A stretch of 64,000 nt of DNA from Chiloscyllium plagiosum (lineage: Eukaryota): positions 33,635,839-33,699,838 of the forward strand of contig NC_057736.1 of the NCBI RefSeq assembly GCF_004010195.1, read 5' to 3'. Shown piece after piece: positions 56,007-59,668 of the stretch (positions within the stretch are counted from its first letter, which is position 1; every line of letters begins with the position of its first letter). Position numbers and translations under genes: made by a program. Below the pieces are notes generated by a model, which was not told where the DNA came from, searched no databases, and worked only from the letters and a program-made list of their open reading frames with translations.

Positions 56007-56755
56007 CCAATGTTTCAATATGAATAGAGTGTGGAACCTGATTCAATCTTGAAGAATCATCCAGACTGTGTTCTTCGCAAAGCTACATTTGCAAAAATCC
56101 CAGAGAGAGCTGCCTTTACATACTGACACATGCCAGAACTAATGTCATCTGAACACTCCATACCATACTCCATTTTCCTTCAAGGATTAACCATTGTGAC
56201 TAAAATTGTTTTTACTTAAAAGCAAATCTCTGCAAAGAGGAATATATTTCTGTTTATCTTTTATCTGGCACATGGGTTTGTGCCTATGTTTTTGGTAATT
56301 TGCAGGATGAAAGATTTGTATTGCTACATTGCAAACCAATGTTACAGAACATATTTTGCATCTTTGTGGACTACGTTTTGTTTTACAACAAATGTATAAT
56401 TTTAGGCATTTCAAAGTACTACCATTGATGTAACCATTTGAAAGAAAAGTCTAATATCAAGAAAGCCTACCAAAATAACTCCACAGAGGCCAGTATCCTG
56501 TCACCAAGACACCGTTTATTTACACATGGAGAGTCCTGGACACTGATCCAGCTCCCTCAGAGCCGGCTCTCGGAGTGAACAGGATCTCTGACATGTCTGC
56601 TCTTTTTTTTGCACGAATCTTTATTCACATTTCTACCACCAGGAAGAAAAGAAACAATATGTCTGCTTTTTTTAAATATAATATGTACATCCATTTTCAC
56701 ATTCTACTGGCTTTTTGTCAGCTTTTCCCTCTGGATGTGAAATAATTCCACAGAG

Positions 56756-56844
56756 TTAAAAATCACACAACACCAGGTTATAGTCCAACAGGTTTAATTG
56801 GAAGCACACTAGCTTTTGGAGCGACGCTCCTTCATCAGGTGATG
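56756..56844 (-). mobile_element. Family-C Penelope cassette nested in the transduced LTR piece, 15-bp TSD
   Basis: AATAATTCCACAGAG at 56741-56755 and 56845-56859. cacCTGATGA-A-GGAGC-GTC-GCTCC-aAAA-GCTA-gtg. Confidence 0.85.
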
Positions 56845-57140
56845 AATAATTCCACAGAGGCTGGTATTCCCATCACCACGTCACCCTTTATTTACAAGTG
56901 TATGGTCCGGCTTCCTCAGACCCAGCTCTCAGAGTGTCAGAACATCTGACACTCCTATTTTCTTTTACTTTTTATTTTTATTTTTACCCCCACACTACTG
57001 CCTAACTGCGGTGGTGCTTATTTTTTCCCAGCACCCATGTTGGTGTGTATGCAAATGTGAGACACAGTGAAAGACACAAGGTGCACAAATCTTTATTCAA
57101 ATTTCCACCACCAGGAAGAAAAGAAACAACATGTCTGCTC

Positions 57141-57433
57141 TTTTTTTTCTTTCTTTTTCAGTGAGAGACACAAGGTACACCAATCTTTATTCAATTTCCA
57201 CCACCAGGAAGATAGGAAAACACCAGAGTGGCCAGTGACAAGCAGTGCCCTTCACATCGAAGGGCAATGCTCTGTGATCAAAACAGTGAAGGGGAGGGTA
57301 GGGACTAAATCAAAATAGAGTTGGAGAAATGATGCACTCCACTCCCTGCGGCGGCCACCTCTCCCTGAACAACTCCAGGGTGTTGGTGGACACCGTGTGC
57401 TCCTTCTCCAAGGACACCCGGGCTCGAACATAA
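57141..57433 (-). mobile_element. Tx1-clade (L1 group) LINE 3' end: ORF2 C-terminus, 3' UTR and poly(A)
   Basis: Minus-strand translation from 57432 gives YVRARVSLEKEHTVSTNTLELFRERWPPQGVECII, resembling the Tx1-type C-terminal F..RW...C motif. AATAAA and an A tail follow. Confidence 0.75.
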
Positions 57434-59668
57434 ACATGTCTGCTCTTTTTTTTTCAACTACTCCTGTTCTTTTTTTATATAACCCCTACACTACCGCCTA
57501 ACTGCGGTAGTGCTTATTTTTTTCCCCAGCACCCATGGTGCGTGTGTGCATGTGTGAGACACTGTGAGAACATATGTGCTCTTTTTTTTTCAAGAAACAA
57601 AAATGTATTCTATTTTAAATTTTACATGGTTAAGTTCTCCAATAACAATTAAAACTTAAAAAGATTAGATTCCAAACTTATAATAAATGATTTTCACAGG
57701 ATCAGTGAGGTTGACTAGCCATACTTGAAAAATATCACATTGTGAAAGACTTGCATTTGTTAGGACATTTTGTAAGATGCAACAGGAAAACCAACATTTA
57801 TACAGCACAAGAGGAGAGTGCTGATAAGTTAACATGCATTAGTAGCTACATACATTAGATTAAACATGTGTGCTCTTATCTGTCAGCAAGGGCACTCTGA
57901 CTGGGGCTAGATGAACAACCCCAATTAAGGAACACATATTCTATAAGGTCCACCTTGGTTGACCTTGTTACAATCACTACACTGACAATTTCCATATTGA
58001 GAATCAGATAAAACAATTAACTTTACATTGCGATTGGAAAGCTGTGGGACGAGAGAGAGTTGGTGCACTGTTTCTGTTTGGGAACAGCAAAGGATTTACT
58101 GTAAGGAAGAAATTTCAATGTGACAGACGTGCTTTTAGGAATGAGTGCATTTTGTAAATTTTCAATACAGGTATGGTGAAATACCGATTTTATTTAACAA
58201 ATCTTTATTTTCCTCACTGTGCACAGGTCCTGACATCTGCTGACTTATGGTGGATACGATACTAAATGAGTTGGCATAGGATGTAAAATAGCAAAGGGTA
58301 GGAGGTGTGGAGCATGGCTTAACAGCCACAGGTTGTCTTGAAGATAATGATAGGTTATGGAAAGTGGGTACAGTGGCATAGTTTAACAGGAATGACAGGG
58401 GATCGTGGGGATGTGTGCAGTATGTCTGGTGGCAAAGATGCAAATGGATTGAGCATGGGAAGTGTGCATGGGAGGGAGAAGATGAGAGATTACAACTGTC
58501 TTCAGTTTCATTAGCTGTTTTAAAATTAATTTTCCACACAGTATCCCTTTCTCGTGCCCAGCTTGCATCCAGAGTCAGTATCCTCCACCTTTATTCCAGG
58601 TTTGCACCTCCATCCTATTCATCATCTTACAACAGTGCTGCATGTTACTCCAGATTTTTACCTGAGTAGCTGTGCCTGACAAGTCTTGAATGCCTAGTGC
58701 CATGGTCTCTTTGCCAGCCTTGAGCGAAGAGAATGGGTCTCTTCTCCAACACCCGCCCAATGGGATCTTCAGGTCCCTATCAGTGTAACTTTCCCTCTCT
58801 CAGTCTCATCTCCTTTGGAATTGTGCAGCAACACACTGTTAAGGACAGTTCCTGGTTTGCTGTGTTCAAAATGGTTTTACTAAGACACTCAGGGTAAATA
58901 CCAGAAAGGCCCATCTTCCTCTGTTCTGCCTATGCTGAGCACAATACTGTGCAGGAATGTTGCCATGGAGATTTAGCATACATAATGAGGTGAATAGCAG
59001 TAAATCACATGAAACAAGTTATCGGATTTATGTAGCAAAACCCTCCATGTAACTCCCTGAAACTGACATTGGTCAAATTAAAGGAAGATTCAGCCCATTA
59101 TCCCTCTATTACTATTCTTTACTTCCGAGACAAACTAAAATTACATTCCAAAGACCTTTTCATTTTTCCATGGCTAAAAGCCAGTCCCAATTCACAAAAA
59201 CTTTCTCAAGCCAATTTTAATTGAAAACCGAAGACACAGTAATGCAAGCAAAATTAAACATCCAAACGAAATGGTAAAATACTGATCAATATCTTCTCAC
59301 AGCTTCAGTGTCACCTTCTAACACTTTAAACAATTTTGTAAAAAAAAAACAAAATTTTTTAAGCAGGTGGCCATTCCTTTTTAAGACAAATGGATGCTAA
59401 ACTTAATGTTAAACACCACTCAAAGTATTATTACATTTAAAACAGCTATGAGGCAATTCTGGCAGCTGACCTATGTGGAACACAGAGACAAGATGCTTTG
59501 ATTTTTGCTGAGTCCACCCCATTTATAGGCAATTGGAAGCTTCCAATTTTTTTTTATTAAGGACAGCAAATTTGTCACAACATGAAATTTAATTAACTGA
59601 TTACTCAACATTAATAAATTGGGTTTTGCATTAATGCAGATACTCCGGAACTTGGGAAACTATATCCA

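Follow-up and report, generated by a model that had tools for sequence, protein, structure and literature searches.

A retrocopy of a single non-coding-looking locus at an LTR site preferred by a Tx1-like LINE

Among the units stacked in a short LTR-like repeat of the window (the whole stretch of DNA that was analysed, 64,000 nucleotides long), unit E is genuine and well resolved: a retrocopy of one locus that looks non-coding, made by an ordinary mechanism. We estimate at roughly 70% the probability that the proteins of a Tx1-like LINE made it by TPRT in trans, from a polymerase II transcript that was polyadenylated and shows no coding evidence. The unit has a single donor, an untemplated tail and a paired duplication around it; the LINE has a preference for the site, and intronless copies of host mRNAs stand at other copies of it. 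Unit E belongs to a pattern, seen across the genome, of retrocopies directed to this kind of site, and is itself probably inert.

Unit E and the stack that holds it

Five units (A to E) split the short LTR-like repeat, whose sense is that of the minus strand, and unit E is the TATA-side unit of this stack (Table 1). It has 28.4% G+C, and its best match in the rest of the window reached only E=0.17, so that it shares nothing with the LINE pieces. The first-pass annotation had described an AT-rich spacer of 282 bp, unlike the LINE pieces and lying between target copies, with an A9 tail at the minus-strand end. This description proved accurate: the minus-strand end of the unit reads AATAGAATACATTTTTGTTTCTTG, followed by A9.

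The two target copies that flank unit E, T5 and T6, have a C>G change in common; the remaining four, at 56591, 56657, 57129 and 57434, do not carry it. As this private substitution occurs in both 12-bp flanks, T5 and T6 are one duplicated pair, made after unit D, and they form the target-site duplication of unit E.

Table 1. Features of the five-unit stack, in window coordinates.
Feature	Position	Strand	Description
LTR-like repeat, 3' half	56471..56590	-	contains AATAAA
Target copy T1	56591-56602		before unit A
Unit A	56603..56656	-	46 bp of Tx1-like 3' region + A8
Target copy T2	56657-56668		after unit A
Unit B	56669..57128	-	Tx1-like 3' end + part of a second LTR + its unique flank, then A-tail
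Insertion inside unit B	~56758-56845		later insertion, TSD-flanked
Target copy T3	57129-57140		before unit C
Unit C	57141..57433	-	Tx1-like LINE 3' end, A-rich tail
Target copy T4	57434-57445		after unit C
Unit D	57446..57569	-	Tx1-like LINE 3' end with A9, older than E
Target copy T5	57570..57581	-	ACATATGTGCTC; 3' target-site duplication of E
Unit E	57582..57863	-	282 bp; retrocopy of G000:C5:96788224-96788517
Unit E, A9 tail	57582-57590		
Unit E, body	57591-57863	-	
Target copy T6	57864..57875	-	ACATGTGTGCTC; 5' target-site duplication of E, immediately following the LTR's TATA-like GATAA
LTR-like repeat, 5' half	57876..57981	-	begins TGTAGTG; 1375 first-look candidates genome-wide

In the case of unit B, the sequence points to a likely 3' transduction. 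Its unique flank has a donor at G000:C4:20577096-20577174 (95% identical), and the source region is a ~10-kb LTR stack on the same contig (L100/L101). Since unit B carries flank DNA of this stack, 3' transduction likely feeds the stacks too; two loci, L051 and L082, are built in the same way. The LINE piece of unit B and the C4 units are only 84-91% identical; the source unit may be hidden in an N gap. Unit A has a 5' end identical to that of the LINE piece of unit B (57082-57128) and stops soon after an AATAAA that is internal to the LINE. Its template may have been an RNA transcribed from the window's own array.

The donor locus

When the window's genome (3.56 Gb) was searched and 40 of 59 candidates were scored, these 40 included one full-length donor of unit E, on another contig; a genome search was the check that the first-pass annotation had proposed. 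The remaining scored matches were unit E itself and 38 short ones to an old dispersed repeat, which corresponds to approximately bases 27-132 of minus-strand unit E and gives weak matches (75-93% over 39-104 bp, 38/40 scored). This old repeat sits inside the donor and does not supply the ends of unit E. The annotation had also named a high-copy repeat with its own ends as a result that would speak against capture. Instead, there was one full-length match, and the 38 others cover inner stretches of 39-104 bp only.

The alignment of unit E to its donor holds 260 identities and 12 substitutions in 272 bases, together with one 23-nt deletion in the copy. Contigs from two other runs cover the donor and carry the copy's letter at 5/12 (X1) and 3/12 (X3) of the substituted sites, and 8 substitutions are left when unit E is compared with the donor allele of the X1 contigs. 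The donor alleles (L002:824-1812; X1, X3) are ~1% different from the assembly. The unbroken donor contigs give a hint that unit E may be absent in the X1 and X3 individuals, although contigs as such cannot show absence.

At the copied end the donor has the anatomy of a poly(A) site: an AATAAA lies 18 nt before the last copied base, followed by CA and by T7 at +20. AATAAA at such spacing occurs at 1.5% of 67,342 positions in the donor region. Past the copied end the donor continues as CATCTCTC, which is without an A-run, so the A-tail of unit E is untemplated. Because this AATAAA/CA/T-run end has no genomic A-run, the template was likely a cleaved, polyadenylated RNA. The copy itself has AATAGA. 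It had been read as a variant poly(A) signal, and the hexamer is indeed present; it is however a decayed AATAAA, as the donor has AATAAA, unchanged in the contigs of both X1 and X3.

A DNA-templated origin would dispense with the RNA. An endonuclease cut could have been repaired by copying donor DNA, with the A-run taken over from the array, and the tails of units D and E, both TTG-A9, would suit such a patch. Yet the TTG of unit E is already in the donor, the target copy behind the tail of E is of the T6 type and not of the T4 type that follows unit D, and the copied end coincides with a poly(A)-type site. We consider such a patch extremely improbable. A tail of E borrowed from unit D is rejected by the target-copy variants.

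Regarding the nature of the donor transcript, Pfam searches of 150 of the 207 upstream same-strand unmasked frames in L031-L037 gave no match above the cut-off and two zinc-ribbon hits below it, and 80 further frames (from frames over 180 kb) likewise gave no match above the cut-off. This exon hunt covered 230 of 1,060 unmasked frames. Rfam gave no match on the donor, and no promoter or upstream exon was identified for it. In the single-cell run X5 (one sample, 2-6% of the run read), 12.96 million reads left zero depth over the unique donor bases.

These results bear on the first-pass proposal of an mRNA 3' UTR retro-copied in trans. Its core, the capture in trans of a non-transposon RNA, is borne out by the single donor and its poly(A)-site anatomy, whereas the 3' UTR part lacks a Pfam-positive exon: as no coding exon was found, the label is unsupported. 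The donor could still be the distal part of a coding mRNA's 3' UTR, or a terminal non-coding exon whose acceptor is the AG at the SINE 3' end, the insertion route remaining the same. The canonical poly(A) anatomy is compatible with this, as are the true mRNAs captured at the LTR site elsewhere and a weak acceptor-like AG 6 nt before the copy start (crude score 4.6). Besides the Pfam result, however, a 2.6-kb LINE remnant lies in antisense 4.8 kb upstream of the donor, and the copy contains no exon junction, which leaves this origin quite improbable.

Orphan 3' transduction, the other possibility raised earlier, would have a Tx1 element upstream of the donor that was read through to the AATAAA, with the copy truncated before any LINE sequence. 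Unit B, which resembles a 3' transduction from the C4 LTR stack, and the similar loci L051 and L082 give it a precedent. The 111 kb upstream of the donor, however, contain neither a 3' end nor a body of a Tx1 element, the second L1-like family described below has no copy in them either, and their lone LTR faces away from the donor. The only Tx1-like copy in 180 kb (L031:149-4455; G000:C5:96780148-96784454) is on the same strand, 5'-truncated and 3.8 kb downstream of the donor poly(A) site. Orphan transduction would therefore need a source that is absent from the assembly, either an insertion missing from the assembled haplotype or one within the ~1.6 kb of N in the upstream region, and it is very unlikely. 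The downstream Tx1-like copy was itself rejected as the source, being on the wrong side and 5'-truncated, and no causal link between it and unit E was found.

The SINE at the 5' end of the copy

At the donor, the 5' end of unit E corresponds to a position in the (AATCT)n tail of a SINE on the same strand. A copy start within ~10 nt of the SINE tail has a chance expectation of ~0.2%, which counts against the preferred reading. The SINE is a putative HE1 V-SINE; ARAGORN and Rfam gave no match on it. HE1 is described in PMC3747384 as a tRNA-derived SINE of sharks and rays. Stalling of the reverse transcriptase at the SINE 3' hairpin is not supported, the hairpin being no more stable than shuffled sequences (z=-1.43). 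A pattern search for other captures starting in a SINE tail gave one match, a rearranged LTR with no capture.

This start raises the question of whether the SINE supplied the RNA. In such a scenario, its polymerase III promoter would have started an RNA that read into the flank and was polyadenylated at the AATAAA, and a 5'-truncated copy was then inserted in trans (a SINE orphan 3' transduction). The exact position of the start within the tail argues for it, and so does the age of the SINE, which is older than unit E (best identity to 20 other copies 87%). Poly(A)-ended SINE-sense RNAs do exist in X5, where 1,377 partly aligned reads have poly(A) near the tail, all from other SINE copies; the donor locus has no X5 reads. 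T4-T5 runs usually stop polymerase III, and four of them stand between the SINE tail and the copied end. The copied end comes 8 nt after the last T5 and has the character of a cleavage site. Overall, we regard a SINE-initiated RNA as unlikely. Separately, ~800 X5 reads from other SINE copies have their poly(A) exactly at the SINE tail or immediately beyond it (L002:1786-1802).

The target site and the LINEs that use it

The site beside the TATA-like motif of the short LTR is a preferred target of the Tx1-like LINE. LINE 3' ends lie inside LTR halves at 16/29 loci, compared to an LTR in 2-3/28 comparison loci (Fisher p=0.0006), the 28 being weak matches to the old repeat and not a random draw. 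This share also exceeds the >20% of flanks in one repeat by which target preference is defined in PMC4494074. The exact pattern of target plus T-run had 48 occurrences and its reversed control 0. The targeting is a preference only. When LTR loci were looked at in turn, five or six of 29 were occupied at the target site.

Copies of the LTR-like repeat chosen for their TG...CA ends are mostly 236-241 bp long when empty, and a 5-bp TSD was exact for 3/21 and within one mismatch for 6/21. The repeat has a density of ~1 per 54 kb (6 in 324 kb), from which the exact target site is estimated to make up ~0.03% of the genome.

The mobilising LINE is classed as Tx1-like by its sequence, that is by an ORF2 encoding a reverse transcriptase domain (PF00078) and by its named relatives. 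These include the 'transposon TX1 uncharacterized 149 kDa protein' and pol-like proteins, most of them with PF03372. A protein atlas search returned unnamed clusters and PRP8 RT-like domains only. The LTR site is shared with a second, L1-like family, whose 3' region is GC-rich and repeated (L101:250-2600; L142, L143, L152, L158, L168), and for this reason the enzyme behind unit E is not assignable with certainty.

Other non-LINE units were also seen at the target. They include the old repeat in antisense with a short tail (L065:1183-1497, reverse-complement numbering) and, among L040, L079 and L093, unique pieces of 128-194 bp joined to LINE ends and a ~30-bp tandem unit.

Retrocopied host mRNAs at the LTR site elsewhere in the genome

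The suggestion that the site archives host transcripts is supported, as copies of host mRNAs were found at it on other contigs. RPL29 occurs there as two young retrocopies, L113 (C34) and L115 (C3), the second of which was found independently. Compared with the parent, which has a GT-AG intron, both are spliced; the first, in stack L072, lacks this 84-nt intron. Four older RPL29 copies all lie outside the LTR site. A ferritin retrocopy occupies the site at L149 (C11; 1/30 pattern loci) and an RPL30-like copy at L132 (C9). The RPL30-like copy came from a search for the L7Ae family, which gave 10 matches, with 1 in an LTR stack and the other 9 unsorted as gene or retrocopy. The two RPL29, the ferritin and the RPL30-like copies are each in sense and either nearest the TATA-like side or alone. 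In the case of RPL29 at L113 and of ferritin, the copies have coding parents whose introns they have lost, as expected of processed pseudogenes.

To obtain a count for one gene family, 40 of 194 ferritin candidates were scored and 30 loci fetched, leaving 18 further intronless copies once the query, 10 exon-limited copies and the ambiguous L179 were left out. Of these 18, 4 are enclosed by the two LTR halves, 1 stands behind an LTR half in a stack, 3 belong to Tx1 stacks, 1 adjoins a partial LTR and the other 9 are elsewhere. The copies in stacks (8/18) exceed a loose background of any LTR within 3 kb (p=0.014). The strict count of 5/18 against 3/28 for the loose 3-kb background is not significant (p=0.23). 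Given that the exact site is such a small part of the genome, the positional enrichment is far above what these loose-background tests show.

Four of the 18 ferritin retrocopies (L165, L173, L176 and L181) have their poly(A) tail directly before the head of a common tRNA-type SINE on the same strand, and L182 and L091 look like the same arrangement. Ferritin tails before SINE heads could mean a second preferred target or template jumping. About 10 intron-containing ferritin genes form a tandem cluster at G000:C39:4.62-4.72 Mb, which likely holds the parents of many of the retrocopies.

Proposed route of insertion

The preferred reading, TPRT in trans of a polymerase II transcript, can be laid out as follows. 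A germ-line transcript, non-coding or intronic, would have been cleaved 18 nt after the AATAAA of the donor. An endonuclease would then have nicked the LTR-side target copy, giving a T-ended primer that pairs with the A-tail. Copying presumably halted after ~295 nt at the tail of the older SINE, unless the RNA began there. Cleavage of the second strand would have left 12-14 bp duplicated and the target rebuilt. Later, the copy probably decayed, losing 23 bp and changing AATAAA to AATAGA. The SINE-initiated RNA, the coding 3' UTR and orphan transduction have this insertion route in common with the preferred reading and differ from it in the origin of the RNA.

Comparison with known systems

L1 3' and orphan transductions copy unique flanking DNA with a poly(A) tail. 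Unit B fits this description, whereas unit E differs in having no source LINE upstream of its donor. L1 copies are dispersed over short T-rich sites, whereas here a large share goes to one motif of one repeat family and stacks there. In other respects unit E is like the processed pseudogenes of L1 as given in PMC3747384: templates are chosen in trans in a poly(A)-dependent, 'relaxed' way, copies are 5'-truncated and a TSD is made.

Taken at the level of sequence, the stacks give evidence that any polyadenylated RNA is accepted by a Tx1-like LINE with a target preference, or else by the second, L1-like family at this site. The target is rebuilt with every insertion, so that the order of the insertions can be read from the stacks. 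The captured ends map germ-line poly(A) sites, that of unit E in unannotated-looking DNA. As a wider and tentative idea, possible but not the likelier outcome, a site-choosing LINE steers roughly a quarter to a half of host retrocopies (from the ferritin sample) to a motif behind the TATA-like box of the LTR, in sense and ahead of the LTR poly(A) signal. The ~66,000 LTR copies might then be an ordered, datable archive of germ-line RNAs, including unannotated non-coding ones. If true, retrocopies would from the outset be placed between a promoter and a terminator that are ready for use.

LTR-preferring Tx1 families have already been published, and so have SINEs that are brought to the target of a Tx1 element. 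No report of host mRNA retrocopies steered to a Tx1 target came up in the literature searched, subscription papers and Repbase reports being outside its scope. A vertebrate-wide survey (bioRxiv 10.64898/2026.06.26.734816) counts 14,081 retrocopies in cartilaginous fishes and states that CR1 or Tx1 elements sustain retroduplication outside mammals. Its link to Tx1/CR1 is made by correlation of abundance, and the term 'target site' is absent from its main text.

The closest parallel is found in crocodilians (Kojima 2015, PMC4494074), where two Tx1 families, Tx1-8_Crp and Tx1-4_AMi, prefer LTR retrotransposons, and where SINEU-3 is carried in trans to the target of Tx1-Mar in tandem insertions. 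The passages on these elements in that paper do not report host mRNA copies at the target. Both cases have a transposon as the target, a poly(A)-tailed passenger in trans and tandem insertions that sandwich a TSD. They differ in the passenger: a multi-copy SINE family in PMC4494074, and in the present genome a single-copy host RNA at unit E and spliced mRNAs where the site recurs elsewhere.
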